Virus record (IMG/VR): IMGVR_UViG_3300042691_013609
Coordinates: 32,001-96,000 of that record
Length of the DNA: 64,000 bases
Source: a virus
Reading direction: 5' to 3' (one strand)
Position numbers and translations under genes: made by a program. Positions 1 through 42,765 of the stretch are shown here, piece after piece. Below the pieces are notes generated by a model that was not told where the DNA came from, ran no database searches, and saw nothing but the letters and a program-made list of their open reading frames with translations. Numbering within the stretch: the stretch's first letter is position 1; the number at the start of each line of letters is the position of its first letter.

Positions 1-3000
1 AAGGGGCAGTAGCTACGAATAAGGTAGATGCAATAGATAAGTTAAACGGATTTTTAAGACAGGCTTTCCCAACCACTAGCTTCTTTACTACACAAGAGGC
101 TTGGGATGCTGTTATGGAGAATGGATCGATAGACAAGAAGTCTGTTGATGGTAATGTCCTTTATGGGTTTACTGCTAATGGGAATGTTTATATCAACCCA
201 GATATAAAAACAGCTAAAGCTCCTTTACACGAAGTAGGACACTTATGGGTTAATTTTGTTAAGGATACAAACCCGGCTCTTTATGAGAAAGGATTGGCAT
301 TAACAGAAGGTACTGCCGAGTTAGCCACAGAGATGGAAAAATATGGGGACACAAATCTAGCTAGAGAAGAAGCTTTAGTTAAATTGATGTCTACCAAAGG
401 TGAGACCATTGTAAATACAGCCCAGAAGGCTGAGTTTAAAGAATGGTTGTTATCTATGTGGAAGTATGTGAAGGATAATTTTAAATCTTTATTAGATATT
501 CCAGCCGACCAAGTTGAAGACATTACTTTAGACCAGTTCTTAAAGGGGATGTTGGCAGATGTACTTGGTGGAAAAGAGTTAGTTCCGCCTAAAAAAGCTA
601 AAAAAACTAAAGGTACTAAAGAGATTACAGTAAATAAATCTTCGAGGGAAGATGTTAAGAAGGCTATAGAAGATATTGCTTTAGTTGATAAAGACATAGT
701 GGCTAATGCGGCTTCAAAAGTGTTTAAAGATCCTGGTTACCATAGGGGCATTTTAGGTAAAAAATCAGATTTCACCGATAGATCTTATCATGGTGAGATG
801 CCTTATACTGGATATTATTTTGTATCCGACCCTAAAGAAGTTGTTCTAGGTCAATCTAGATGGGGAGACCCAAGGGCTTTTAGAATTGTAGATTTTTCTA
901 AATATAACTTAGTTAAATTCACTGGGGCGGAAGAATATTTTTCTTTAAAAATAGCTTTGAAGAGTTTAGCGGTAGATCTGTTAAGAGGTGAGATTAAAAT
1001 TGAGGAGGCGTTAAAAAATTTCCTTGAAAAACCATATACCTCTTTACCTAATTCTGTAGTAAGAGCTATACGAGATTACGATGGTAACAAACTTCAAAAA
1101 CAAGATCTTTCAAGAGAGAAGTTTCAATTAGAAGAAAGATTAAACACAGTTCGTAGTAATAAAGAGTTTGATGAGATAAGCAATAGAATAAACGAGATAA
1201 ATTCGGAAATATCTAAGATAGGTAAAAAACCATTTAGCGAGGCTTTGGGTGGTGTATTAGATGAATACGAAAAGCAAAGAAGTGCCCCACAAAAATCAGA
1301 AGAAGATCCTCCAGGAAGGGCTGAAAGGCTAGAAACTTTAATACTAAAAGAGTTAGGTTTTGAGGGTATAGATGCCAGACGTGTAAAAGCTGAGAATGGG
1401 CTAAAATCTCCAGATGATTTTTCACATGGGTCTACTATATTTGATTTAAAGCCTGGTACTGCCACATCATTACATGATGCTTATGTAGATGCTAAAGAGA
1501 ATAACACTAACCCAGAGCTAGTACAAGCTATGGATGATATGTTAGACCAAGAACGTGAAATAATTGTAAATAAATCCTCTAAAATACCCGGACCCGCTAG
1601 AATTGATAGGGAACTTCCAACTCCAAATAAAGAAAGAATTACAAATGCAACTGAGAATTTGCAGAAAAAATTCAGAAGGGATGGGGTTCGTTTAACCGAA
1701 AAAGAGGGAATGGAGATAGTTAAAGAATTATCTTCTTGGAAAGATTGGTATGAAGGTATAGCAGCTAAAGTGCAAGAAGCTTTTGGTGAATACTCTGCTG
1801 ATTACATGATGTTTATGTTTGGATCCGCTGTAGCTGCGAATAGCGCATCTACTATTGGCACATCTTTAAATAATCTGCAAAGATTATATGAAGGACAAGA
1901 TATAAAAGGTTTGCCTATAATGAAAAGAAATATTTATGAAATTCTTTCTAACTTGCCTGTCACAAGTGATAAGATAAGAAACTTCATAGCCGCCGGATTA
2001 GGCGATAAAAACGCCATACCTGTAGATATGCATGTTTGGAGTTTTATAAATTCATTTCCTACTTTAAAAACACCAAGTAAAAAAAATTTTGAAAAAGCTA
2101 AAGAGTTTGTTAGAAGTATTGCAGATGGTCTTAAATGGGACCCAAGAGAAGTGCAAGCAGCTATGTGGGCAGCTAACATGCTTAGATTAGGATTAGAACC
2201 AGACACTTATGAAGAATACATCCAAAGAAAAGTTGAGCGAGGACTCAAAGATCAGATCCAAAAATGGCGCGAAAAAGGTTATAAGCCAATTTTTGAAGTT
2301 CGTGAAGTCGGAGGGAAGTTAGAAACTTCCTTTATAGACGAAGTTAAGATTGACGCTTTGCAAAAATTAGAAGAGACTAATAGAAAAATAAGTAATAAAA
2401 AAGAAGAAATTACAGTAAGTAAATCTTCAAAAACCCAAAAGACAAAATTTGATCCTAGGGATAGAGGCCAAATGCTGGAAGACGAGTTCCTTAAAACAAA
2501 GGAAACTCTTATAAAAATGATCAGCGCCAGCTATAGAAATTCCATTAGTAAGGGTAAGAAATTTACCGAAGAAGACTTCAAGAAAATCCTAGATAAGTTT
2601 AATATTTCTATAGATGATAGTGGCATAGAGTTGTTGTTTAAGAGGGCTGTTAGATATAACTCTTATCCTAGAACAATCCAAAGAATTATTCTTACCCCTT
2701 CCATCCCCGACAATGTTAAAGATGCTTTATTAGATAACGCTAAACCAAAAGAAGTTATTACTGATGAGCACGTTGAAATCTTAGCAGATGCAATAGTAGC
2801 ACCAGGAAGGGAGGCAGAAACTAATGAAGAAGCAGTAGAAATCTTTGATAACTTACAAAAAGATTTGATTGATTCTTTAGCCAGGGAGTTAACAAACATA
2901 AGAGATGGGGCCCAGAGCCAGATTACTTACGAGATTAGGGCGTTGAAGAAAATTGCCCAAAGTCTTATTGAGATGGGAGATGTGAAGAGATCCGCAGATG

Positions 3001-6000
3001 TACTGGCGAAGATTACTTCTTTAGGTTCTTTATTTGGTAAGGAGCTTAGGGAGATTGGTTTGAACTCAATGGATGCAGTTTATATTGTCCACTTATCTAG
3101 GGAATCCGATGAGAATAGAGAAGAAGTTTTAAATGCCCCGGCTAAAGGGTATGAAAAAACAACTAATAGAGAAAGGATCGATAGCCAAAACAAAGCAGCA
3201 GAAGAAGCTTTAAAAGAAGGTGTTAGCGAAAGAAAAAAAGAAACGGCTAAAAAAGTACAAGAGAAATACGATAAGAGGACTAGTACAGAGAAAGTAAAAG
3301 AGGCTACCGAAGAAAGAGAGACTGCGCATGCTGCCGAAAAGAAAAAAGGACTTTTTGATAAGATAGTTGGGTCAGTTAAAGATTTCTTTGGTGTTAGCAA
3401 ATCTTCTTTAAATAAAAAGAATCCTCTTGCAGATACAGCCGGGAAAACTATTCCAGCAGCCCAGTTGGCACAGGTTGCCAAGGACTATTTTATGTATGCC
3501 TTTTATAACAATAATGGTAACACACAAAAAGCCCGCGAAGAATTTTTAAGTAAAAAAGAATTAAAAGGGGCGCACGGAGACATAGACCAGATCATAGGCA
3601 GTTTAGTTAGTGATGGTACATTGGATACGGCTACAAGAGAATTAGCCCAAGCCAAGATATTAGAAGCTCTACAGGAAGTACAAACTCCAAGCAATGTAAG
3701 AAAGCTTAGTCCTGCGCAATTAATTGCCATGAGGGTAAAAGCAATTGATAAGAGAAATGAAAAGGCTAAACCTAAAAGGAAAACTTTAGAACAAAAGATC
3801 GCAGAGAATGATGTAGATATAGAAACATTAACTGAACTTAGGAATGCTATTAATGCTGAATTAATGCAGTTGCCGGCCAATAAGAAAGAAGAAGTATTGG
3901 CAAGGGTAGATGATATTTTAGTTAACCTAAGAGCCGAAAAATTAAAGAATAGGGCTACACCATGGATAACTAAAGCTAAGATTAGGGAAGACTTCAAAAG
4001 AGGTTTATCTTCTTTAGGAGAAACTGTTGAAGACCTAATGGATGATCTATCTAAAATAGATGTCTATACTAATTCTATTGCCCAGGAGTTTATACAAAGA
4101 ACAGGTATGACTGCCGAAGAGGCAGCGCCATTCGTAAAGATTATAGAAGATGAAATTAAAAACATAGTAGATACTAAGGTCAAAGCTGCTTTAGAAAAAG
4201 AATACTTAGATTCTTTACAAGGAAACAGAGACGACTTAGTTAATGCTGCCGAAGAGTACGCCCAAAAAGCTTCAGATTTTGAAGCAGAAGCAGATAAACT
4301 ACGTAATAAAACTAAGACACCTGAAGAAGTTGAAAGGTTAAAGACAGCACAAAGAGAAGCAGCAAGATACAAAAAACTTGCAGCTAGAGCTAAGTCAAGG
4401 TTAAAAACATTTGACGAAAAAGCTGCCAAGCGTTTAAAAAGTGGAGATTTCTACCAGATTTTAAAGACTATTACGCAAGGTGGATTAACACAAGAAACCG
4501 TAGTAAATGCTTTAGCTAATTCTTTAAGAGTAGAGGTAATCTCTAAAGAGCAACTAAACCATATTGAGATTCTATCTGAAAAGATAAGGAATGCAACTAT
4601 GGCTAAGAATTCTGTGGACGAGGAAAAAGCTATAACTGAATTAAAGAAATACCTATACGGAATAAGTAATGTATCTTTCTTAGATATTTTTAAACGTATG
4701 TGGGAATCTTTTATGTACGGTAATATGCTTTCTAGCCCACGAACAGCAGAGGTTGCTTTCTTTTCTGGTACGATAGGTTTAATTAGAGATGTTATTGCAA
4801 ATTTCTTCCAAGCTTTAGCTGTAGATATATTAAATTTTTCACCTATTACCATAGGCAAGGATGGGATTAAAACAAGACGAGTAAAACCTGATTTTAGAAA
4901 TTTAAGAACATTAGGTAATGCATTATTAGATATAGTTGGTAGTAATAATATTTTTTCTTTTTCTACATTCTTTGAGGTATTAAAAGGTGCCGAAGGTATT
5001 TCTATACAGCAGATGGATGTCTCTGGTAAGACTAAAGATAGATTATCTAATTCTTTAGCTGAAATAGATAAGGCGGATGTTGCTATAGATAGGATAAAAC
5101 AAGATCCTAATTGGAAAATAAAGCCTAATAAAATAGCTGCTGTAGGAGCTTTAGAGGCTTTCAAATTACAACAAAGGATAGCTAGATTACTTGTTGCTAT
5201 GGACTATGCCGCTAGAAGTGCAGCCATACCTTACGCAATAAGAATGACCACTGCCCAAATAGCTACGGAGTCTTTGCCGATTAGTGCTACCTATAAAGAT
5301 ATTTATAATAAGACAAATGAAATTATAAATAGAGGTGAAGCAAAAGCAATAGCAGAAGCGAAAGCAGCCGAGATGGCAGCATTAGGTAAGAACTTTGATG
5401 AGAAAAGGTATGAGAAGAAAGTAGCTACAAGTGAGGCTGTATTACCAGCCGAGGTGCAAAGAAGAGTTAAAGAGTATGCAGATAGATTAGCCTGGACGGG
5501 TAGAATATTTGGTTACTCGGGTTGGATGGCCAACAAGTTAAATGGGGCGTTTGAAAAATTTAATGGAGAACCTATTTTACCAAATGACTCACTCCCAACT
5601 ACTTTAAGAAAATTAGCTATACAAATACCTCTTACCGCAGTTAAAATGGTGGCAATACCATTCCCAGGAGTATTATTTAGAGGTATGCAGTCTGTAAAAA
5701 ATGCTACTATTTTAGGTCTTTTCCAGAGGAAAGTCGTAAAAGGACTTGACGGGAAATACACCCAAGGAAAAGGATGGCCGTTGCAATTCTTTAAAGAACA
5801 TAGATTATATAATAGTGCAGGAAATGTAGATGAAGTAATCAAAGCTTCTAACTGGGAAGTAGCATCGAGAATAGCTTGGTCAACTGTCCCATCTGTAATG
5901 GCTTGGGCTTTATTTCAAGCTATGTTTACTTTTGATTTTGAAGACGATGAAGAAGAAAAAGAGTACAATGAGATGGGTTATTTTAATCCTCTTAAATTTG

Positions 6001-7340
6001 GTGCATTTTTTGAAAATGGAGCTACTATTAAGCTAAAATCTGATAGCGATTGGTTAATTACTGGAGAGTATGATTCTGATATGGAGGCAGTATTCAGAGG
6101 TAAAGGTTTACAGTATTTCCCTAATGCCATTTACTATAAAGGTAAGAAACTTCCTATTGTTGGTGGGTATAAAGATATGCCTTGGGGTATATTCTTTTCC
6201 GGGCTGGCGGCAGTGCAAGAAAGAGAACTTTATGCAGAAAAAGTAAAAGGGTCAAGTGATGCTACCAGAGATCCTTTAACTACTAGTGATGTCTTTAAAA
6301 TTATGGCGCTAAGTGGTGTAGGATTCCTTAGTGAATTTGGTTTGACTGGAGCTTTAGAACAACTATCCTTTATTACTGGAATATTTTCAGGAGAAGTTGA
6401 TGACAAAGTTTTCCAAAAAGCACAAAAAAATTTAGTAAGAACAAACATACCTGCTGTTGGTTTCGCCACTTGGTCAGCTAATCTCAAAGGAATGTACAAA
6501 GATGATGACAAAAGAAAAGGCATAGGTGTATTATCCGGAGCTATGGCGAATGCCTATGTGTTTGACGACTTCATTGATACATACGACTTCGACGCTTTAG
6601 GTAAAAGAATACCTTACCAAGAAAGTCCTTATCCTATTTTAGGCTCTGTTGAAAGGGCTGTGGCTTCTATAAATAATTCTAATTATTCTTTATTAACTAA
6701 TTCAACTTTTAAAGACCGCCAAACTAAAGCAGATATAATTAGATCTAAATACTCAGACTTCGCTACCTTAATTAGAAAGCAAAGCCCGAAAGATGTCTTA
6801 AAGAGTGAGAGAACTATTGTGGAGACTTTTGACGATCAGTCTAATTATGATATGGCCTTAGCTGCCGCTACCTCAAAAGGAGAAATGTTGGATACGTACT
6901 ATGAATACTTAGATGGATTAGAGAGAGGAGACTTCTCTAAAAGGCTTAGAGAAATAAACAATATAGGAAACGATCACGCCTTCTGTTCTAAAGTCTTAAC
7001 TGTATTAGAAAATAATGCCGATAAGATAATGAATGAAACAGGACTTTCCATCCAAGATATTGTCTCTAAAATAGGAATTAGACCAAAGAGTAAAATTGGA
7101 TTAACTAATGTGCAGGATAAAAACAGCAAAGGAGAATTCAAATATGATGCCAATGGAAATCCTGTAATGGTACCTGGATACTTTAAAAGATCAAAGCTAG
7201 TAGAATTGCTTTATGAATATGACATAAAAGTTACTAGCGATGGCCAATTAAAATTCAACCAAAAATACCAAGATACTTACGACAGGGAAGAGTTTGAGGA
7301 TTATATGAATTCACAAGCTGGAGATGTAGAGTCAGAGTAA
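1..7340 (+). CDS. Giant polyvalent virion/cargo protein, 5'-truncated: zincin metallopeptidase-like, ART-like and HhH-GPD-like modules plus long helical regions
   Basis: The frame of the 114..7340 ORF is open back to the window start. Motifs: HEVGH (HExxH) at 228-242; YHRG..GYYF..GFEGID (ART-like); WY..KIRNF..PVDMHVW..EVQAAMW (HhH-GPD-like). Last gene of a plus-strand block. Confidence 0.7.
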   Translation, partial: GAVATNKVDAIDKLNGFLRQAFPTTSFFTTQEAWDAVMENGSIDKKSVDGNVLYGFTANGNVYINPDIKTAKAPLHEVGHLWVNFVKDTNPALYEKGLALTEGTAELATEMEKYGDTNLAREEALVKLMSTKGETIVNTAQKAEFKEWLLSMWKYVKDNFKSLLDIPADQVEDITLDQFLKGMLADVLGGKELVPPKKAKKTKGTKEITVNKSSREDVKKAIEDIALVDKDIVANAASKVFKDPGYHRGILGKKSDFTDRSYHGEMPYTGYYFVSDPKEVVLGQSRWGDPRAFRIVDFSKYNLVKFTGAEEYFSLKIALKSLAVDLLRGEIKIEEALKNFLEKPYTSLPNSVVRAIRDYDGNKLQKQDLSREKFQLEERLNTVRSNKEFDEISNRINEINSEISKIGKKPFSEALGGVLDEYEKQRSAPQKSEEDPPGRAERLETLILKELGFEGIDARRVKAENGLKSPDDFSHGSTIFDLKPGTATSLHDAYVDAKENNTNPELVQAMDDMLDQEREIIVNKSSKIPGPARIDRELPTPNKERITNATENLQKKFRRDGVRLTEKEGMEIVKELSSWKDWYEGIAAKVQEAFGEYSADYMMFMFGSAVAANSASTIGTSLNNLQRLYEGQDIKGLPIMKRNIYEILSNLPVTSDKIRNFIAAGLGDKNAIPVDMHVWSFINSFPTLKTPSKKNFEKAKEFVRSIADGLKWDPREVQAAMWAANMLRLGLEPDTYEEYIQRKVERGLKDQIQKWREKGYKPIFEVREVGGKLETSFIDEVKIDALQKLEETNRKISNKKEEITVSKSSKTQKTKFDPRDRGQMLEDEFLKTKETLIKMISASYRNSISKGKKFTEEDFKKILDKFNISIDDSGIELLFKRAVRYNSYPRTIQRIILTPSIPDNVKDALLDNAKPKEVITDEHVEILADAIVAPGREAETNEEAVEIFDNLQKDLIDSLARELTNIRDGAQSQITYEIRALKKIAQSLIEMGDVKRSADVLAKITSLGSLFGKELREIGLNSMDAVYIVHLSRESDENREEVLNAPAKGYEKTTNRERIDSQNKAAEEALKEGVSERKKETAKKVQEKYDKRTSTEKVKEATEERETAHAAEKKKGLFDKIVGSVKDFFGVSKSSLNKKNPLADTAGKTIPAAQLAQVAKDYFMYAFYNNNGNTQKAREEFLSKKELKGAHGDIDQIIGSLVSDGTLDTATRELAQAKILEALQEVQTPSNVRKLSPAQLIAMRVKAIDKRNEKAKPKRKTLEQKIAENDVDIETLTELRNAINAELMQLPANKKEEVLARVDDILVNLRAEKLKNRATPWITKAKIREDFKRGLSSLGETVEDLMDDLSKIDVYTNSIAQEFIQRTGMTAEEAAPFVKIIEDEIKNIVDTKVKAALEKEYLDSLQGNRDDLVNAAEEYAQKASDFEAEADKLRNKTKTPEEVERLKTAQREAARYKKLAARAKSRLKTFDEKAAKRLKSGDFYQILKTITQGGLTQETVVNALANSLRVEVISKEQLNHIEILSEKIRNATMAKNSVDEEKAITELKKYLYGISNVSFLDIFKRMWESFMYGNMLSSPRTAEVAFFSGTIGLIRDVIANFFQALAVDILNFSPITIGKDGIKTRRVKPDFRNLRTLGNALLDIVGSNNIFSFSTFFEVLKGAEGISIQQMDVSGKTKDRLSNSLAEIDKADVAIDRIKQDPNWKIKPNKIAAVGALEAFKLQQRIARLLVAMDYAARSAAIPYAIRMTTAQIATESLPISATYKDIYNKTNEIINRGEAKAIAEAKAAEMAALGKNFDEKRYEKKVATSEAVLPAEVQRRVKEYADRLAWTGRIFGYSGWMANKLNGAFEKFNGEPILPNDSLPTTLRKLAIQIPLTAVKMVAIPFPGVLFRGMQSVKNATILGLFQRKVVKGLDGKYTQGKGWPLQFFKEHRLYNSAGNVDEVIKASNWEVASRIAWSTVPSVMAWALFQAMFTFDFEDDEEEKEYNEMGYFNPLKFGAFFENGATIKLKSDSDWLITGEYDSDMEAVFRGKGLQYFPNAIYYKGKKLPIVGGYKDMPWGIFFSGLAAVQERELYAEKVKGSSDATRDPLTTSDVFKIMALSGVGFLSEFGLTGALEQLSFITGIFSGEVDDKVFQKAQKNLVRTNIPAVGFATWSANLKGMYKDDDKRKGIGVLSGAMANAYVFDDFIDTYDFDALGKRIPYQESPYPILGSVERAVASINNSNYSLLTNSTFKDRQTKADIIRSKYSDFATLIRKQSPKDVLKSERTIVETFDDQSNYDMALAAATSKGEMLDTYYEYLDGLERGDFSKRLREINNIGNDHAFCSKVLTVLENNADKIMNETGLSIQDIVSKIGIRPKSKIGLTNVQDKNSKGEFKYDANGNPVMVPGYFKRSKLVELLYEYDIKVTSDGQLKFNQKYQDTYDREEFEDYMNSQAGDVESE

Positions 7341-8674: not shown

Positions 8675-8935
8675 TTAAACATTTTCTAATTGTAATTCTA
8701 ATTCTTTAATCAACTCTTCAAACGGACCTTCATCCAAGGGCCTAAACCTATACGCAGCAAAACCTCTATAAGGAGTTCCCAGTTCGGTAAGGTTTATTTC
8801 CTCTAACACGAAAAGGGGAACTCCATTCATATCGCTAAGTACGCTAATAACTGTATAGGCATTACCTTTTTTAACCCAATGTGTCGTTGGTATCTCATTG
8901 GGCCTAGCATTGTCGTTTACGCACTCAACCAACAT
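8675..8935 (-). CDS. Conserved small phage protein (SH3-like, VECVND..G..YTV..FAAYRF)
   Basis: ORF track; co-oriented with neighbours. Confidence 0.6.
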   Translation of the reverse strand: MLVECVNDNARPNEIPTTHWVKKGNAYTVISVLSDMNGVPLFVLEEINLTELGTPYRGFAAYRFRPLDEGPFEELIKELELQLENV

Positions 8936-9283: not shown

Positions 9284-11146
9284 TTAGTGCACTGCGGAAT
9301 AACTATCTCCAACTTTTGGGTCAACTGCCATAGTGACATTTAACTTCAACTTTTCGTTAGCCAAAGCCACAGCTTTTTTAAAAATTTTAAATGTTTCCTG
9401 CTCCTTATCTGCCGGAGCGTAGCATAAAATCTCATCATGCATTTGAAGTCTTATTTTAAGTCCAAGTAACCTACAGTACATAATAAAGACATCCATAAAG
9501 TAAGTGGATAAATTTTGGTTCAAAGCACTAAACCTATCCTTGTCATTTCTTAACTCTAACCAAAAGCCAGATACTGGACTTTTAATCCATGAGCATTCAA
9601 AGGCATCCTTAACCTCTGAATTATTTTCTACTTCCAATACCGCCCAGTTCCTTTCCCAATAGGCTTTAATAAAGCCCTTACATGTGTATTCAGGGAATCC
9701 TGTATTTCTTGATAGCGTAGTGGCCCCGCACTTATAAAGAACTGAGAAGTTAATTACTTTGGCAACCTTTCGTTGCTTGCCATGATCCTCCTCTCCTTTT
9801 TTGTGTGCAGCAGCTTGCTCTTGAGTGAGTAGGCTAGTCCTTACTGCCATATCTAAGTGGGCATCAAAGTCTGGCGAACTCATCTCTTCTACGTACTTAG
9901 GGTCATAAGGTTTTATGAAATGATCCCTTGTCTTTGCCTCTGAGGAAACTACGTCAACCCCAAAAACTACATGGTCATCAGGTGCTATAAATAACCCCCT
10001 AATTTCTTTACCCCATGGTTTGTCCACGCCTGGAAGATTTACAACCTTACCATGCTTCATTCTATGTGTGCTAGTTAGCCCAACTAATTCTTGGGACAGC
10101 CATCCATTTTTTGAATCTCTAAGGAAACCTTCTACTTGTGCTATCCTATGATTTAAAACACCTAATCCTTCAAGTTCTGAAATCTCTGGGTGTTTTTCGG
10201 ATAGAACTAAAACAGAATTGCATAACTCTTTATTGTCTTTAATAATTTGAGGTATCTGTTTTATAGTGCCAGTTTCTTTATTCCTTACAAATTTGTGGGT
10301 GGCCGGCTGCCATCCTAAATTAGTTAACCAATCTTTTATCTGTGTGGTGGATGATGGATTAGGTTCTTTATAAGATTTAATGTAAACTACAGGTCCGTTT
10401 GTTTCTTCAGGTAGTTTAGCCCTTCTTAAAAAATCATACCAATCTTTTCCGGAAGCCGATAAAGAACCATCTTTTTTGTAAAGAATTTTTGGTTTAATTT
10501 TATTAGCCAAGATCTTTACTTTTGGCATGACTTGTTTTAGTTTCTCTAATTTCTCATCCCTCTTCACACACATATCTACAAGTATATCCTGGGCTTTGTT
10601 TATATCAATCCTACAAGGATTCATTATCTGCTCAAAAGCACAGGATGCTTTGAATGACATATATTTTAGAAGATCGCCCAATGATTTCTCATCCCCATCG
10701 TATAAAACTTCAAGACGTGATTTGATGCGCATGTAAAGATTTGAATTTATCTTTACGTCTGTCTCACATCTGTTAGTGTATTCTTCTCTACTTAAATTAC
10801 TCCAATCACTTATCTTAACTTTCTCAACCCCAAAGTCTACACCGAAAGATTCCAAAGAATATTCATTTCTTTTCGGGAAAATATAATGAGATAAAAAAAG
10901 AGTGTCATAAAAAGGAAAGTCGATTTCAACACCGACTATCCTTTCAAGAACAGCTAAGTCATAATTACTGATAAAGTGGCCGATAAATATAGCATCAGTC
11001 TGTTTAAAGAAGTTTACTATATCAGAATACTCATACAACGATCTTACCTTCCATTCACCGACTATAGTGTAACTTAAACAGTGAACTTTTGTTACATCAT
11101 TTAAAAGAGCATCAGCCTCTATGTCGAATATTATTTCTTTAGCCAT
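9284..11146 (-). CDS. polA: DNA polymerase family A with 3'-5' exonuclease domain
   Basis: ExoI FDIEAD, ExoII GHFISNYD, motif A GVDVVSSE, motif B RKVAKVINFSVLY, motif C QMHDE. Confidence 0.93.
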   Translation of the reverse strand: MAKEIIFDIEADALLNDVTKVHCLSYTIVGEWKVRSLYEYSDIVNFFKQTDAIFIGHFISNYDLAVLERIVGVEIDFPFYDTLFLSHYIFPKRNEYSLESFGVDFGVEKVKISDWSNLSREEYTNRCETDVKINSNLYMRIKSRLEVLYDGDEKSLGDLLKYMSFKASCAFEQIMNPCRIDINKAQDILVDMCVKRDEKLEKLKQVMPKVKILANKIKPKILYKKDGSLSASGKDWYDFLRRAKLPEETNGPVVYIKSYKEPNPSSTTQIKDWLTNLGWQPATHKFVRNKETGTIKQIPQIIKDNKELCNSVLVLSEKHPEISELEGLGVLNHRIAQVEGFLRDSKNGWLSQELVGLTSTHRMKHGKVVNLPGVDKPWGKEIRGLFIAPDDHVVFGVDVVSSEAKTRDHFIKPYDPKYVEEMSSPDFDAHLDMAVRTSLLTQEQAAAHKKGEEDHGKQRKVAKVINFSVLYKCGATTLSRNTGFPEYTCKGFIKAYWERNWAVLEVENNSEVKDAFECSWIKSPVSGFWLELRNDKDRFSALNQNLSTYFMDVFIMYCRLLGLKIRLQMHDEILCYAPADKEQETFKIFKKAVALANEKLKLNVTMAVDPKVGDSYSAVH

Positions 11147-14886: not shown

Positions 14887-15506
14887 GCATTTAAAGTGTG
14901 TTGAAAAGGATTTCCTTCTATATTTTTAACTAAATTAAGCATCTGTCTTGCTATCTCTTGTATTTCAACTTGCGCATGATCGTCCATCCGCTGGGTTAAA
15001 AAGTTATGAAACGATCTCATATTAAACATAACATCAGACTCTATCTGTGAGTTGTATGTCTTAAAGAATCTTGCTGACTCCTTTGCACGTTTTCTACCTA
15101 AGATAGGAGTGAGTTCTTCAAGACATTGATGATACCATTGGTTAGACATTTGAGTAAACCCTATCAAATGACGTTGTGCTTCTTGTGGCCAATCATCTGG
15201 GATGTAATACTTATCTTCTTTTAATTCTTTATAACGAGCCGACTCAGCATTAATTGATGAGATACGATGTTTCAACAAATGTATATGGCTAGCAATATCG
15301 CAGTTAACTAAAAAATGTACCATACCTTTCTCAAAAGGTGTTCCATGCGGTACAGGTTCTGCATTCCATAATTGTTCTATCAATGCAGGAATTCTTTCCC
15401 TTTTCTCAGGTGATAAATCTCTTGAGGTACTCGTCCACGCGCTGCAAGAAATTGCTTCGTCACCTCCGTACCATCCAATTAGTTTTACGCTATTATTCAT
15501 TGTCAT
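14874..15506 (-). CDS. thyX: Flavin-dependent thymidylate synthase
   Basis: HGTPFE, HLLKHR.SS.NAESARY (RHR-type motif variant), AKESAR, NMRSF, R...HAQ.EI. Confidence 0.92.
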   Translation of the reverse strand: MTMNNSVKLIGWYGGDEAISCSAWTSTSRDLSPEKRERIPALIEQLWNAEPVPHGTPFEKGMVHFLVNCDIASHIHLLKHRISSINAESARYKELKEDKYYIPDDWPQEAQRHLIGFTQMSNQWYHQCLEELTPILGRKRAKESARFFKTYNSQIESDVMFNMRSFHNFLTQRMDDHAQVEIQEIARQMLNLVKNIEGNPFQHTLNAWNL

Positions 15507-16255
15507 TATTTAATTGGTTCAATCGATGGAAAATTCTTTGGATTGGTTGTTGTACTCGATCCTTGCGTTATTTTATAATCCCCATATTTTGCGGGATTTG
15601 GAACCATTTTATTTGCCATTATGCAATTACATATTGTACAACCACACACTATGTGGAATGGTACTAAATCGTCTAATTTATTTATGTCCTTCATTTTTAA
15701 AATTTTAAATCTACTTTGTTGTCCACGCCTTATTTTACCCTCCCAAACATAAGGCCCATTCGCTCCTTCTTCTTCGTACATGTAAAGACTTGCTGTTCTT
15801 ATTGAAGGAAAAATCTTACCTGTTTGAGTGTCAAACACTTGTTGGCTACGAACCTCATTTGCTTTCTTAATCATATCATACCTGCGTTCAGGGTTGTTTT
15901 TATTCCACGCTCTTAGGTTATCTTCTCGTGTCAAATACTCTAAATTAGAGACGTGGTTATTTGTTTTACATTCGTCTATGTGGTTAACAGTCAACGAGTT
16001 ATCTCCTTTAATGAATGCTGAAGCAACAAGGCGGTGAACTTTAAAGCGCTTCATCTTTCCGTCTTTGTACAAGTTTACAAGGTGGTATCCGTATGCGTCT
16101 AAAATAGGCTTTAGGATTTTTTCTTTTACAACTTGATTACCTTTTAAACCGTGTGCTACAGAACGCTCGCAAGACTTAACTTGCCCACAATCTGACACCT
16201 GATAAAGGCCTTCGTATCCTAGTATATCCTTCCAAATTTCCATGTTGTTACTCAT
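15506..16255 (-). CDS. NUMOD4-HNH-NUMOD1-like homing endonuclease, fused to a small Cys-rich C-terminal ORF
   Basis: EIWKDI.GYEGLYQVS..G.VKS (NUMOD4); VHRLVA..VNHIDE.KTNN.V.NLE (HNH). Confidence 0.9.
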   Translation of the reverse strand: MSNNMEIWKDILGYEGLYQVSDCGQVKSCERSVAHGLKGNQVVKEKILKPILDAYGYHLVNLYKDGKMKRFKVHRLVASAFIKGDNSLTVNHIDECKTNNHVSNLEYLTREDNLRAWNKNNPERRYDMIKKANEVRSQQVFDTQTGKIFPSIRTASLYMYEEEGANGPYVWEGKIRRGQQSRFKILKMKDINKLDDLVPFHIVCGCTICNCIMANKMVPNPAKYGDYKITQGSSTTTNPKNFPSIEPIK

Positions 16256-17354: not shown

Positions 17355-18061
17355 ATTGAATCTTTTAGAAATAAAGGAGAATTGTTGTTTCTCAAATCCT
17401 GTATATGCATCAAGGCTTTAGAGAATGAAATATATCTAGCTTCATCGTATGTATCTATGGAGTCTCCCCTATTAGTAGCTAACTCTATATAGGGGTCTTC
17501 TGAAGTATAAAGCATTTTGTTTTCATCGAAAAACATTACAACATAATAATATGTTGACGGCATAATACTATCTAATTTCACAAGTAGATATATGTTGTAA
17601 TTTCTCTTTAACCAATTCTCTAAAAACAAATACTCCATATTTATTTCCCTGCTATCTAAAGAACACTTATCCAATTCTTTAGCTGATATAGGATAATTCA
17701 TTTTATAACCTAACTCACAGGCTCTCTCAAATAAGCCACGACATTTTTTACTTGAAGCAGGATTGTTTCCAGTCACAATAGAAGTCTTTCGACCTACGTG
17801 TAAATCTTTATCTACTTCTTTTTTTACCGGAACTTGGTCTTGAAGTTTGCTTTCCCCATCTTTTCTTATTCTACTCATTGCCGCTTCACAATATAAAGCA
17901 AAATCCATAGCTTCGGCCTGTGCCTCTTTTAACCAATCTATTAGATTGTAATCATCCCTTTCAAGAGTAGTACCATATTTTTCTAACCCAACTATGGATC
18001 TATCTGTAATTTTCCTAATTACGCTGCGGACATGGCGGTCATAAACAAATTCTTCGTGCAT
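17351..18061 (-). CDS. Putative all-alpha NTP-pyrophosphatase-like domain (R..VG..KYGTTL.R..WL..AQ.E..D..LY) fused to an unknown domain
   Basis: Motif at the N-terminus. Start moved to ATG 18061 because a TATCTTTG promoter element sits at 18080-18087. Confidence 0.55.
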   Translation of the reverse strand: MHEEFVYDRHVRSVIRKITDRSIVGLEKYGTTLERDDYNLIDWLKEAQAEAMDFALYCEAAMSRIRKDGESKLQDQVPVKKEVDKDLHVGRKTSIVTGNNPASSKKCRGLFERACELGYKMNYPISAKELDKCSLDSREINMEYLFLENWLKRNYNIYLLVKLDSIMPSTYYYVVMFFDENKMLYTSEDPYIELATNRGDSIDTYDEARYISFSKALMHIQDLRNNNSPLFLKDSI

Positions 18062-19280: not shown

Positions 19281-19769
19281 TCATGATTTATTTAAAATTT
19301 TAAACCTAATTTGTGTGCCTCTTATTATTTTACTTTTCCAAGCAAAAGGGCCACTCGCGCCTTCTTCTTCATACATATATAAACTTGCTTCTTTAATAGA
19401 AGAAAATACCTTATTAGTTTGTGTATCTAAAACTTTTCTGCTACAGACCTCTTTTGATTTTTTAGTCATCTCAGCCAAATATTCTGAATCGTTTTTTATC
19501 CTGCCTTTATCTACGGCATCTTGCCAATTATCTTTGGCTGAACCTAAGAATAGATGATCCGGGTTAACACATTTTCTATTGTCACATGAGTGACATACAT
19601 ACATACCTTTAGGAATCTCTCCTTTATGTAGAGTATAAGAAAGCCTGTGGGCATCTAATACTTTTCCATCTACTTTGATAGCGCCATAACCTGTCTTACC
19701 TCTTAGACCGGCCGTCCATTCCCAACATCCGTCTTCTATCTTATTTATTTTACTATAAAACCTTTCCAT
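19281..19769 (-). CDS. HNH homing endonuclease (HNH_3-like plus NUMOD1-like)
   Basis: CWEW..GYG..AHRLSY..VCHSCDNRKCVNPDHLFLG..DN. Confidence 0.9.
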   Translation of the reverse strand: MERFYSKINKIEDGCWEWTAGLRGKTGYGAIKVDGKVLDAHRLSYTLHKGEIPKGMYVCHSCDNRKCVNPDHLFLGSAKDNWQDAVDKGRIKNDSEYLAEMTKKSKEVCSRKVLDTQTNKVFSSIKEASLYMYEEEGASGPFAWKSKIIRGTQIRFKILNKS

Positions 19770-19787
19770 TTATTTTACTTTTTTTAA

Positions 19788-19912
19788 AAAGATATGTGGT
19801 GTCGCTCCACTGCCTCTACAACCTAAGAATTTCGCTCAAAAGGGACTTCTAGAACTTATGTCCGTTTCGTACTAATCCGAATTGCTAACACCATTTTTGA
19901 ATGGATATCTTT
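19788..19912 (-). ncRNA. Candidate multibranch structured RNA upstream of the HNH gene
   Basis: Outer stem AAAGATAT/ATATCTTT, TGGTGT/ACACCA, inner hairpins TTCG/CGAA and GGAC/GTCC. Confidence 0.4.
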
Positions 19913-19929
19913 GTATTAATTGTGGTCAC

Positions 19930-20121
19930 TCATAACCATTTTCCAAATCTAAAATTAGTAAACCCTATTCCAGATATATCTGGATCATTTTTATATATCT
20001 CTTCTAATTCTTTATAATACGGAGATTCTTTAGGTTCGCTAGTAGCCTCTGTTTTATACAGTATTTTTTCACATGGTTTATCTCTACGAAGATAATAAAA
20101 AATATATTCTCGTTTTGCCAT
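19930..20121 (-). CDS. Small hypothetical protein
   Basis: 63-aa ORF with A-rich leader. Confidence 0.55.
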   Translation of the reverse strand: MAKREYIFYYLRRDKPCEKILYKTEATSEPKESPYYKELEEIYKNDPDISGIGFTNFRFGKWL

Positions 20122-20142
20122 TCTATTTTTTATTTTATTATT

Positions 20143-20478
20143 TTAAAAACCCGCAAGATACATGATGCGTCCATCAGTAGAGCTTGCAGGATACGTTACA
20201 ATTTATACCTTGGGCTATTCATTGTAACAAGAAGACCAGAGGGCAGTTCTTTGGGATGCTTCCTGGTACGTTATTAAAAAGCCAGGAAAGCGAGCGTGGA
20301 CACCACGCTCCTAAACTCTCCTAGCACGAAATTCTCCACTAAGTCTCGGTATACACAACATAGGAGAATTAGAAATAGGGAGCTACCCATCTTTCCTATA
20401 ACCGATCGCATCCTATAGAGGCTGGTAGTATTATTCCACCCAGAAGTTTAAAACTTCCTTTCATTGCACCTATAGCGA
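20143..20478 (-). ncRNA. Large (~330 nt) multi-hairpin non-coding RNA directly downstream of the tRNA
   Basis: At least 7 stems (e.g. AATTCTCC/GGAGAATT, GAGCGTGG/CCACGCTC, GTTACAAT/ATTGTAAC, CCTGCAAG/CTTGCGGG followed by a U-tract); no ORF; GC above background. Confidence 0.65.
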
Positions 20479-20485
20479 AACTGGG

Positions 20486-20559
20486 TGGGCTAAATAGGGC
20501 TTGAACCTATGACCTACTGATTATGAGTCAGTTGCTCTAACCTACTGAGCTATTAGCCC
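20486..20559 (-). tRNA. tRNA with CAT anticodon (Ile2-lysidine or elongator Met)
   Basis: GGGCTAA/TTAGCCC acceptor, TAGCTCAGTAGGTTAGAGCA D-arm, CTGA-CTCATAA-TCAG anticodon arm, GGTTCAAGCCC T-arm; CCA not encoded. Confidence 0.92.
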
Positions 20560-20572
20560 TTAAAGATGATTA

Positions 20573-20580
20573 CAAATTTA
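20573..20580 (-). promoter_or_regulatory. TAAATTTG -7 promoter element driving the tRNA/ncRNA transcript
   Basis: TAnnTTTG about 14 nt upstream of the tRNA 5' end. Confidence 0.7.
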
Positions 20581-20620
20581 GTACATATTTTTATATTATA
20601 TTGTTAAATGATTGTTAAAT

Positions 20621-20650
20621 ATAGGGGGAGTTTTATTTTCCTCCCCCTAT
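20621..20650 (-). terminator. Hairpin, probable terminator after the primase operon
   Basis: ATAGGGGGAG..CTCCCCCTAT, a perfect 10-bp stem. Confidence 0.6.
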
Positions 20651-20680
20651 CCGTGGCAGACACGTTATCAGAGGCGTATA

Positions 20681-21208
20681 TTATTGGAAGTTAAACTTCT
20701 CTTTGTTTGAATCATACCAAGTAAATAACCTACTATGCTGTAAATTTGGTTGGCTATACGCATTTTCGGGTTTAAAAAATAGGTAATCTAATCTTTTATT
20801 ATACACAGATTCCTCCGTTTCAAAGTAAGAAACAATTAGACTATATATCTCTTTATGGGTAAAAGATGTCTCCGCCCTAAACCAAGCGATAAGTTTTAAT
20901 AGTTTATTTTTTGGACATATTACTAATTCTTCTTCTTTGTATTTATCTAATAGGTAATCGGCAAGTTTCTCATCGTTCTCATGGTAATTAGGTATTTGTA
21001 TCTTGTCTAAGATTTCTTTTCCTTTTTTATTTAATCTTACTTCCCCGTTTTTCAGAGTCTGAGTGTAATCTGATAGATGCAGTATAGTAAAGTTATCAAC
21101 TATGTACTGGTTCAAATCCTCTGTACGATTTTGATGTATCGCTTGCAAAGCCACTATATCTGCTACAGATAGTTCTACTTTTTTCAAGTAGTTAAAATTT
21201 ATATACAT
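20681..21208 (-). CDS. Hypothetical replication-module protein
   Basis: ORF track; downstream of primase. Confidence 0.55.
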   Translation of the reverse strand: MYINFNYLKKVELSVADIVALQAIHQNRTEDLNQYIVDNFTILHLSDYTQTLKNGEVRLNKKGKEILDKIQIPNYHENDEKLADYLLDKYKEEELVICPKNKLLKLIAWFRAETSFTHKEIYSLIVSYFETEESVYNKRLDYLFFKPENAYSQPNLQHSRLFTWYDSNKEKFNFQ

Positions 21209-21561
21209 TGATCTGAATTTTCTATGTTATCTTCCTCCTCTTCTTTAAAGGATACTATGTTGTTGTATTTTATATAAGCTGTTTCCCACCTTGCTAAGTA
21301 AGCAGTTATTACTTTTGATTCGTTTTCTGATGTTTTAAAATTTTTAACCAGCCATTTTTGCATTACATAAACATTGCAATTTTGCTCTTTGTCATCAGTC
21401 TCTTCACAGCCTGGTATAAAAGATAGTAACTCACTATTTTTTAGTGGTTCTATTAATTCATAACCATCCCCGACATCATCTAAATAAAAGTTATTCCTTC
21501 TTTCATAAACAACCTGCCCAGGTTTTAACTTACTTTTTGTTAACTTCTTCAATTTTTTCAT
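21199..21561 (-). CDS. Hypothetical protein
   Basis: ORF overlaps both neighbours. Confidence 0.55.
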   Translation of the reverse strand: MKKLKKLTKSKLKPGQVVYERRNNFYLDDVGDGYELIEPLKNSELLSFIPGCEETDDKEQNCNVYVMQKWLVKNFKTSENESKVITAYLARWETAYIKYNNIVSFKEEEEDNIENSDQCI

Positions 21562-31455: not shown

Positions 31456-32130
31456 TTACAAATCGACCACAAATCCAGACTTGTCTTGCTTCGCCTTACC
31501 CTTGGCAACCAAGCCTATAATGACACCCGATTCGTCCAAGAATCTTGTATCTGATTCGTCACCATCGATTACTTTGTAACCCCAAAAGGTTTCCGGCAAT
31601 CTGTTTCTGAACACTACCGCCACGTTGACCCCATTGGATAACATCTCTTTACAGATGTCATCGTTGTCTTCGCTCCGACTGAACGTGACATGGTAGTTAG
31701 GTACGTTCTTCGATGACCTTGCGAAGTTAGGATTCTTTGTGTAGTCATACCACACTATAGATGGGAACTTCCCATTCATCTTCTTTATGTACGGCATCCA
31801 GTTCAGATCGGACGTACCATTCAATCTGATGGCAAGTTTCTGATGCTTTCTTGAATGCTTTTCTATCTCAGATGTGAGGTTCACCATGAACCCTACCCTA
31901 TCCTTCACATAGTGTAGTGTTCGGTTGACCCTTGTCTGCTGAACGTTTGTAAACTTACCACGACCTGCCGTGTTAAGACACGCAGCCTTGCATCCTGCCG
32001 ATGCATTAGGGCATACGTTGTACCCGCTTTCGTCAGCGGGTGCAAGGTACATGATGAAGTTTTCGTAGTCAGAATACTTGTCTGACTTGTCTATCTTTGC
32101 TGACTTGCCTAATAAATATCCGTATTTCAT
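31456..32130 (-). CDS. Gp88-like phage protein with Cys cluster (radical-SAM-like)
   Basis: CP.AS.GC..ACL, IRLNGTSD, YDYTK, YH.TFS.SE, DGD..D.RFLD, GL.AKG. Confidence 0.75.
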   Translation of the reverse strand: MKYGYLLGKSAKIDKSDKYSDYENFIMYLAPADESGYNVCPNASAGCKAACLNTAGRGKFTNVQQTRVNRTLHYVKDRVGFMVNLTSEIEKHSRKHQKLAIRLNGTSDLNWMPYIKKMNGKFPSIVWYDYTKNPNFARSSKNVPNYHVTFSRSEDNDDICKEMLSNGVNVAVVFRNRLPETFWGYKVIDGDESDTRFLDESGVIIGLVAKGKAKQDKSGFVVDL

Positions 32131-42667: not shown

Positions 42668-42680
42668 TTTTTATTATTTG

Positions 42681-42765
42681 TACTCGAAGTGGGAATCGAA
42701 CCCACACTCCCTCAATGGGAACAGGATTTTAAGTCCTGCGTGTCTACCTATTCCACCATTCGAGC
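42681..42765 (-). tRNA. tRNA-Leu (TAA)
   Basis: GCTCGAA/TTCGAGT acceptor, GGTGGAATAGGTAGACAC D-arm, CAGGA-CTTAAAA-TCCTG anticodon arm, long variable arm, GGTTCGATTCC. Confidence 0.95.

Follow-up and report, generated by a model that had tools for sequence, protein, structure and literature searches.

A composite structured non-coding region directly behind the tRNA-Met gene of a putative crAss-like phage

Phage tRNA operons have been known to specify small stable RNAs since T4, in which tRNA-Arg (71173-71247) is followed by rnaD (71053-71171; species 2, 119 nt) and rnaC (70908-71046; species 1, 139 nt). Viral small RNAs that are linked to tRNAs and released by tRNA-processing enzymes are likewise found in a eukaryotic virus, MHV68, whose tRNA-miRNA units involve RNA polymerase III and tRNase Z, and the large phage RNA ROOL is about 580 nt long. 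As for the T4 species, an excerpt of PMC3014915 states that the roles of such tRNA-operon small stable RNAs remain unknown. Here we analyze a gene-free stretch of 341 nt on the minus strand of a 64,000-nt stretch of viral DNA (the window; positions 32,001 to 96,000 of IMG/VR record IMGVR_UViG_3300042691_013609). An earlier note, made from the letters of the window alone, had proposed that this stretch encodes one ornate RNA of about 330 nt, either a short member of the class that includes GOLLD and ROOL or a new one. We find a real, expressed, structured non-coding region directly 3' of a tRNA-Met gene that consists of separable parts. One of these, module A, appears from its sequence and pairing pattern to be a real folded RNA that has not been described before and that would form a new family within the phage tRNA-operon small RNAs; another, module B, is a conserved terminator-bearing tail.

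The composite nature of the stretch is apparent from its occurrence in related phages. A search with the primase of the phage gave 35 relatives, and the alignment of 31 of these led to 14 metagenome loci; nhmmer with the 341 nt as query was run over 19 loci (L002 to L020) and returned four matches in three of them. The entire stretch recurs in L010, identical at 341 of 341 positions and again directly behind tRNA-Met. In the numbering used here, nc 1 is window position 20483 and nc n is 20484 - n. Positions 4840-4978 of L008 match nc 203-340 only (87%), that is, module B alone, and L020 carries both modules at a distance from each other, 8715-8853 matching nc 203-340 (module B) and 10242-10389 matching, weakly, nc 62-210 (module A). 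The order in L020 is thus B, then 1.4 kb of genes, then A, the reverse of that in the window. Half of the 14 loci span at least 1.4 kb downstream of the primase, and among these seven, A is present in two (L010 and L020) and B in three (L010, L008, and L020). Each module is present once in the phage's own 121-kb record. Since the halves occur apart in related phages, we regard the stretch as a composite of a spacer (nc 1-61), module A (nc 62-208), and module B (nc 203-341). The single unit of about 330 nt that had been proposed is therefore not upheld: A and B are found separately in L008 and L020, and the 5' 61 nt or so are missing from the L020 copy, the one diverged copy of module A.

Further searches did not extend this set. 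Single-protein look-ups in IMG/VR with the 175-aa open reading frame (ORF), the primase, and the helicase gave no close relative, and a look-up with the large terminase gave five fragments, none carrying the RNA. DNA patterns for A and B in IMG/VR (0, 0, 4, and 2 stretches) yielded six chance matches, none matching R1, the covariance model of module A described below, and nhmmer recovered only the query word from them; DNA patterns in GTDB genomes yielded nine stretches, none passing R1. A word-based comparison with the other DNA stretches of the survey showed nothing resembling it. Likewise, blastn of GenBank phages with the L020 and L008 versions found no match, and R1 over 151 Bacteroidota genomes gave 0 matches in those searched.

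The modular build bears directly on the possibility that the whole 330 nt is one large ornate RNA of the GOLLD or ROOL kind, perhaps multimeric. That GOLLD and ROOL occur near phage tRNA islands, as the earlier note had stated, is in print, and one GOLLD lies downstream of a Met-tRNA (10.1101/2024.12.08.627333, in excerpt). A single molecule would also agree with the presence of A and B on one RNA contig in three RNA runs, and the palindrome AGCU in the loop of hairpin P-a of module A could form a loop-loop dimer. Nevertheless, we consider a single ornate RNA very improbable, the least probable of the alternatives discussed here. A and B lie apart and in opposite order in L020, with B alone in L008, and the 5' part is absent from the diverged copy; the minimum-free-energy fold of the full stretch contains long-range pairs between parts that occur apart in other phages; and the 341 nt compare with a length often above 800 nt for GOLLD, many members of which exceed this size according to the same excerpt (10.1101/2024.12.08.627333).

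The Rfam searches point in the same direction. At the gathering score, an Rfam 15 cmscan of the window returned two tRNAs only, and a permissive scan (E <= 10) of the 851 nt at 19900-20750 listed six matches, namely, the tRNA itself, an antisense match to it below threshold, and four at chance level (E 0.14-8.8), each of which scores far below gathering. Among these six there is no GOLLD, ROOL, or other large ornate RNA and no RNase P, tmRNA, ribozyme, or riboswitch, and tmRNA, self-cleaving ribozymes, Y RNA, and HEARO were rejected as candidates on this basis. ARAGORN also found two tRNAs and no tmRNA in the window. An RNase P-like reading, based on a GGAAAG stretch, which we take to resemble the P4 strand of RNase P, and on an AGAAC motif, was rejected as well: GGAAAG is not conserved in L020, and the modules that contain the two motifs occur apart. 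No known family thus matches the stretch, and membership in the GOLLD/ROOL class finds no support; what stands of the proposed new class is the part that concerns module A, for which there is no Rfam family, and not a single 330-nt ornate RNA. Blastn of GenBank phages with the stretch matched in the tRNA part only (346 records), and a full-text literature search, judged by titles among the matches listed and with supplementary files aside, gave no described structured RNA of crAss-like phages. Hence, in Rfam 15, GenBank phages (blastn), and the full-text literature search, this RNA has no prior description.

As a whole, the stretch has the properties of structured RNA. All stems named in the earlier note are present on the minus strand (Table 1), the RNA begins at 20483, directly behind the tRNA-Met that ends at 20484, and the stretch does end in a hairpin plus U-tract. 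The predicted fold of the 341 nt has a free energy of -108.9 kcal/mol versus -91.05 +/- 5.75 for 100 shuffles, none of which was as good (z -3.10), and the GC content is 0.435 in 20200-20499 versus about 0.29-0.34 in the flanks. The longest reading frames within the stretch comprise 48-57 codons (code 11). The sole fully open frame needs five TAA as sense, two of them in tandem, and for this reason coding under a changed stop codon was rejected. Considering these five TAA stops and the indels of 1-2 nt by which the homologues differ, we conclude that the stretch is non-coding.

The evidence for structure is most specific for module A. In its predicted fold, a pseudoknot pairs the strand ahead of a first hairpin, P-a, with the loop of a second, P-b, and a long two-part hairpin, P-c, follows (Table 1). 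The L020 copy (nhmmer E 1.4e-07) is 64% identical to that of the window (96 of 149 aligned positions). R1, built from the window copy of A and its assigned structure, found only the window, L010, and L020 among 20 sources, L020 scoring 71.4 bits (E ~1e-15) and a fourth listed match (E 9.9) being due to chance. In the model-guided alignment of window and L020, all 40 pairs in six helices are standard in both copies, and 12 of them have changed on both sides. When the partner columns are slid by 1-3 positions, 38-56% of cells are paired and no more than two pairs are changed on both sides; among 500 shuffles, 0 attain the values observed. Module A folded alone gives a z of -3.11 in the window and -3.17 in L020, and RNAalifold on an independent MAFFT alignment recovers the pseudoknot helix, P-a, and P-c. 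Eight G-U cells would become A-C on the opposite strand; they fit the minus strand only, which is therefore the folded strand. The TCGGT/ACCGA pseudoknot that had been suggested as possible turns out to be real and to extend to 7 bp, with one covarying pair.

Several unpaired blocks of module A are invariant, namely, GCCUCU at its conserved 5' end, GGUAGCUCC in the P-a loop (which includes the AGCU palindrome), UUCG, and GUUUAGGA in the P-c internal loop, and UACCGAGA, the 3' strand of the pseudoknot, is also invariant between the A copies. A third, partial variant of A, on a contig of DNA run X14, carries 12 substitutions within nc 1-273: five are unpaired, four swap a pair to or from a wobble so that the pair is kept, and three lie at the inner tip of P-c beside a 1-nt deletion that shortens the helix.

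A tRNA or tRNA-like gene precedes module A in both of its distinct copies (window and L020). Upstream of module A in L020, positions 10069-10206 match RF00005 (29.3 bits) with a 79-nt insertion replacing the anticodon region. This match lies in the second of two odd tRNA-like genes just upstream of this copy, at 9841-9955 and 10064-10206, both of which begin with AGUCAGG, end in a canonical T-arm and acceptor strand, and carry long insertions. ARAGORN calls neither of them; they could be intron-bearing tRNAs or tRNA mimics.

The region is also present in RNA libraries. Among the 24 sequencing runs listed, all or part of the stretch is present in 20, from 16 studies of lake, wetland, and freshwater samples, and eight of the 20 are recorded as RNA. 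We compared contigs on 19600-21300 in three RNA runs from three studies (X10, X16, and X18) and in one DNA run (X14); the RNA runs X19 and X20 contain small shares of the stretch only and were left out of this comparison. Each of the three RNA runs has an exact contig inside the A plus B region (Table 1), which is good evidence that the RNA exists. All three contigs cross the A/B junction (around 20280), which means that P-c does not fully stop transcription in this phage. In the three RNA runs, depth is 0 over the flanking ORFs (19885-20169 and 20569-21300), tRNA-like pieces excepted; X18 contains in addition one 61-nt piece at 19777-19837 with loose ends, on a contig whose flanks are unlike the window. 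The confinement of the contigs hints that the RNA is abundant and stable. B3, the last hairpin of module B, and the tRNA junction are without RNA contigs, which is evidence neither way.

Module B presents a different picture. Its three hairpins are predicted consistently, the fold of B alone has a z of -3.16, and B3 with its U5 is by form an intrinsic terminator. The sequence is well conserved: nhmmer E values are 4.3e-22 for L008 and 5.5e-16 for L020, and identity among window, L008, and L020 is 84-93%, with primases that are 61% (L008) and 42% (L020) identical to that of the window. Of its 37 pairs, which are 99.1% paired, two have changed on both sides, both at the B3 tip, and 70 of 500 shuffles were as good. 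Covariation is found in A (12 pairs changed on both sides, from two sequences in a model-fitted alignment); B shows little of it, and what is clear for B is conservation of the sequence rather than selection on structure.

The comparison with L010 suggests that the tRNA and both modules travel together. L010 has about 64% identity to the window over the primase gene and the 120-aa and 175-aa genes. From window position 20685 to the contig end at 20139, a block of 548 nt, identity is 98.4% with nine differences, all of them upstream of the tRNA, so that tRNA, A, and B are identical at 417 of 417 positions. The L010 contig ends at the cassette edge, and a contig of X14 extends the near-identity from 20227 to 19870 with four differences. 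The simplest reading of these sequences is that a cassette of about 0.8 kb has recently been exchanged between distinct phages; a chimeric assembly, joined at a shared repeat, is a possible explanation for the L010 identity. By analogy, the neighboring HNH homing endonuclease gene may possibly help the cassette to spread. According to PMC2330249, SegB, an endonuclease in the tRNA cluster of T4, drives preferred inheritance of that region. As a side observation, L010 has an extra 65-aa ORF and a 458-aa ORF (4230-5606) between the 175-aa gene and the tRNA cassette, where the window has nothing; by reading of its motifs, the 458-aa ORF is cytosine-5 DNA methyltransferase-like.

Conceivably, then, the conserved entity could be the DNA itself, either a hot spot of recombination or homing or a regulatory region bound by protein, that rides with the tRNA, in which case the hairpins would be incidental terminators. 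Such an element would account for the complete identity of tRNA, A, and B in L010 despite neighboring coding DNA of about 64% identity, for the L010 contig stopping at the cassette edge, for the nearby HNH gene, and for the high conservation of B with little covariation. In the X14 sample, moreover, B-bearing contigs have a summed depth of 228-261 versus 8-31 over A, from which B seems commoner than A there. We nevertheless regard this as quite unlikely. The 12 compensated pairs in A and the G-U pairs that fit one strand only speak for an RNA, as does the confinement of the RNA-library contigs to the element; GC above that of the flanks is often seen for structured RNAs in AT-rich genomes; and cassette mobility and RNA function are compatible with each other.

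We therefore favor, at a probability of roughly 0.55, a small transcription unit that yields a trans-acting RNA freed by tRNA processing and that resides on a cassette moved by recombination. The unit would run from a probable promoter through tRNA-Met, the spacer hairpins, module A, and module B to the terminator, and host RNA polymerase would make a single precursor of tRNA, A, and B. The tRNA-processing enzymes of the cell, in cutting the 3' end of the tRNA, would free the downstream RNA, which might then persist as an abundant stable small RNA and act in trans via its invariant single-stranded motifs, the GGUAGCUCC loop and the GUUUAGGA internal loop. The cassette as a whole may move between phages by recombination, possibly aided by the HNH homing endonuclease.

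A number of points weigh against this view. Four of the seven loci that span the relevant region (L014, L015, L017, and L019) have neither module in the available DNA. The covariation in A is suggestive and not statistically robust, since there are two distinct full copies and the alignment was fitted to the model, and the stems of B barely vary, so that B could be conserved as DNA or for the binding of a protein. The tRNA/A junction is not spanned by any contig of X10, X16, X18, or X14, and co-transcription is suggested by position; the Logan contigs carry no strand, end, or level information, and the 1.7-kb region compared gives no ranking of RNA abundance against other phage genes. A simple terminator scan called neither P-c nor B3, and TAnnTTTG, the promoter motif considered below, is not enriched in the window (93 matches versus 88.2 +/- 9.4 expected). 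Finally, P-c with its U5 resembles a terminator and is followed in L020, 19 nt beyond the U-tract, by the start of an ORF, an arrangement that also fits a cis-regulatory leader.

Such a cis-acting leader or attenuator is the main rival, in view of the terminator-like form of P-c and B3 and of the small ORFs downstream. Module A, as a ligand- or protein-binding fold with P-c, and/or module B, with B1 and B2 ahead of B3, would gate the small downstream ORFs, and the short RNA in the metatranscriptomes would be the terminated 'off' product. Both A copies indeed end in a long hairpin plus U5, and the small ORFs that closely follow B in the window and L008 are weakly similar to each other (63 and 60 aa; 13 of 28 positions identical by BLASTP, E 3e-04 in a single comparison). 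The RNA contigs cover A and B and not the downstream ORF. Furthermore, the pyrimidine 5' strand of P-b can pair with the purine 5' strand of P-c in the window (7 bp) as a possible antiterminator. However, this alternative pairing keeps five of its seven pairs in the same register in L020, and both strands are of low complexity. P-c also has the invariant internal loop GUUUAGGA, which is absent from simple expression platforms, and in each of the three RNA runs compared the contig continues past P-c into B. A is attached to a tRNA 3' end in two of two cases, and in the window B with its own terminator separates A from the ORF. Where module A is lacking ahead of it, in L008 and L020, B directly adjoins the stop codon of a 191-aa ORF, as a terminator at the end of an operon would, and no riboswitch family is among the six Rfam matches listed. 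On balance, we think a cis-acting leader unlikely, though it is the least unlikely of the alternatives to a trans-acting RNA from a tRNA precursor.

The TAAATTTG box ahead of the tRNA (Table 1) is a weak hint from the sequence that the unit has a promoter of its own. TAnnTTTG is the -7 consensus of Bacteroidota promoters, and one of the L010 differences, which lies inside the box, falls on an N position. Just 3' of the 175-aa ORF, a hairpin at 20617-20650, read from the sequence, is likely the terminator of the upstream operon, in which case the tRNA-RNA unit would be separate; a simple terminator scan did not call it. The spacer domain between the tRNA and module A is lineage specific: it's missing from L020, the first 71 nt folded alone do no better than chance (z -1.5; 15 of 200 shuffles as good), and the three spacer substitutions of the X14 variant (nc 8, 18, and 43) all lie outside stems, which is not significant.

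Table 1. Positions of the features of the stretch, of the RNA-library contigs, and of the neighboring genes
Feature	RNA position (nc)	Window position	Strand	Remark
175-aa ORF		21208-20681	minus	first gene of the minus-strand order
Hairpin AUAGGGGGAG...CUCCCCCUAU then AUUU		20617-20650	minus	just 3' of the 175-aa ORF
TAAATTTG, TAnnTTTG-like -7 box		20573-20580	minus	13 nt upstream of tRNA-Met
tRNA-Met		20484-20559	minus	anticodon CAT, elongator-type stems; ARAGORN; Rfam RF00005, 76.6 bits
Gene-free stretch, 341 nt		20483-20143	minus	between tRNA-Met and the 63-aa ORF
Lineage-specific 5' spacer domain	1-61	20423-20483	minus	two small hairpins closed by CUAUAG/CUAUAG
CUAUAG/CUAUAG	9 and 66			stem of the earlier note, confirmed
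GAAGUUU/AAACUUC	27 / 35			stem confirmed
GGUGG/CUACC	44 / 56			stem confirmed
Module A	62-208	20276-20422	minus	pseudoknot, two hairpins, and long terminator-like hairpin; ~145 nt
AUCGGU/ACCGA	78 / 134			pseudoknot strands confirmed
Module A pseudoknot, 7 bp	79-83 and 85-86 with 132-138			one covarying pair
Module A hairpin P-a	88-112: 88-91 with 109-112, 96-98 with 104-106			invariant loop GGUAGCUCC
GGGUAGCUCCC	96			hairpin confirmed
Module A hairpin P-b	114-121 with 147-154			three covarying pairs
AAUUCUCC/GGAGAAUU	114 / 147			stem confirmed
Module A long two-part hairpin P-c	159-168 with 194-203, 174-181 with 185-192			invariant internal loop GUUUAGGA
GCUAGGAGAG/CUUUCCUGGC	159 / 194			stem confirmed
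GAGCGUGG/CCACGCUC	174 / 185			stem confirmed
Module A U5	204-208			after P-c
Module B	203-341	20143-20281	minus	two hairpins and intrinsic terminator
Hairpin B1	217-249			module B
ACCAG/CUGGU	217 / 245			stem confirmed
Hairpin B2	256-289			module B
GUUACAAU/AUUGUAAC	256 / 282			stem confirmed
Terminator hairpin B3, then U5	294-334, U5 335-339			module B
CCUGCAAG/CUUGCGGG then U5	294 / 327			final stem and U-tract confirmed
X10 RNA-run contig		20196-20469		274 nt, 0 differences; wholly inside the A, B, and spacer stretch
X16 RNA-run contig		20214-20385		172 nt, 0 differences; wholly inside the stretch
X18 RNA-run contig		20255-20464		210 nt, 0 differences; wholly inside the stretch
63-aa ORF		19930-20121	minus	directly 3' of module B
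Spacer, ~160 nt			minus	between the 63-aa ORF and the HNH gene in minus-strand order
Free-standing HNH homing-endonuclease gene		19281-19769	minus	~370 nt downstream of the stretch; Pfam HNH_3, E 2.3e-12

The large terminase, portal, capsid, polymerase, helicase, and primase genes of the 121-kb source record match crAss-like phages distantly, the best isolate match being Cellulophaga phage phi14:2 (26% over the large terminase). By its large terminase, portal, capsid, primase, and polymerase genes, we would place the contig among the crAss-like phages, and its host is presumably a member of the Bacteroidota. A 2408-aa ORF lies on the plus strand at 114-7340 of the window; in crAss-like phages, giant ORFs of this size range often encode subunits of a virion RNA polymerase. 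The other tRNA of the window, tRNA-Leu(TAA) at 42680-42765 (minus strand), has a 128-aa ORF within about 12 nt of its 3' end, and we found no structured RNA behind this tRNA, the ORF lying there instead.

Of the genes downstream of the stretch, the 63-aa ORF is without a Pfam family. The HNH gene has a paralogue at 15506-16255 (minus strand; 62% identity over 68 aa, E 1e-26); both are free-standing in the replication module and have a C-terminal domain in common, and by reading of motifs a further HNH-like ORF is found in L008 (3617-4249). The spacer upstream of the HNH gene (19777-19898) has diverged relatives in DNA run X14, with 16-19 differences over about 110 nt. The region 19766-19932 was considered as a further structured RNA and rejected (fold z -0.12), and an Rfam scan of it gave two chance-level matches only (E 4.5 and 4.7), far below the gathering score. 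Elsewhere in the window, a 128-nt stretch inside a 243-aa ORF (17855-17982) recurs with 76% identity in L008 (3494-3621), L017 (1841-1968), and L020 (7369-7496). Its occurrence in three loci with a gene order unlike that of the window may be taken, at the level of sequence, as further evidence of mosaic exchange in this region.

Two implications follow from our analysis. A long 'ornate' stretch behind a phage tRNA can consist of several independent modules in a row, and this modular build affects how such RNA candidates should be aligned and named. Likewise, among the phage tRNA-operon small stable RNAs, module A offers a tractable example, with its defined pseudoknotted fold of about 145 nt, its presence in RNA libraries of three studies, and a cassette at 100% identity. 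Going well beyond the trans-acting RNA unit as such, one might speculate that A is a phage effector RNA of a new class, carried by a mobile tRNA cassette. Once freed from the tRNA precursor, two copies might pair via their AGCU loops into an RNA-only complex, or the RNA might act as a decoy for a tRNA-targeting host nuclease or defense protein, and the HNH endonuclease might spread the cassette from one co-infecting crAss-like phage to another, in the way that SegB acts on the tRNA region in T4. We regard this as a long shot; if true, AGCU-paired module A would be a miniature counterpart of the ROOL and GOLLD assemblies.

In conclusion, the locus shares features with several described systems. 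Like GOLLD (RF01998) and ROOL (RF03087), which are described in an excerpt of 10.1101/2024.12.08.627333 as phage-borne structured RNAs with pseudoknots that often lie beside tRNAs, it joins a pseudoknotted RNA to a phage tRNA; unlike them, it is much smaller (about 145 nt for A and 341 nt for the stretch) and made of separable modules. It resembles terminator-type riboswitches and leader attenuators in that a conserved pseudoknotted fold is followed by a hairpin and U-tract upstream of an ORF; in the window, B and a second terminator come in between. In contrast to these, A is fused to the 3' end of a tRNA, its terminator-like hairpin includes an internal loop that is invariant, RNA contigs continue beyond P-c, and a conserved alternative pairing was not found. 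The use of a tRNA or tRNA-like gene as 5' handle of a downstream structured RNA is reminiscent of the MHV68 tRNA-miRNA units. The T4 pair rnaD and rnaC behind tRNA-Arg would be the closest analogue, in layout only. The T4 RNAs are without sequence or structure homology to A or B: R1 with filters off gave a best score of 6 bits (E 0.83) on T4 69000-74000, and on the T4 locus nhmmer gave no match with profile A and one chance-level match with profile B (E 1.8, 0.5 bits). They belong to a T-even phage of E. coli and to a cluster of eight tRNAs, whereas the RNA described here follows a lone tRNA in a crAss-like phage, presumably of Bacteroidota. Yet in both cases a phage tRNA is followed immediately, in the same orientation, by two successive small structured RNAs, and the tRNA region contains or adjoins a gene for a homing endonuclease.

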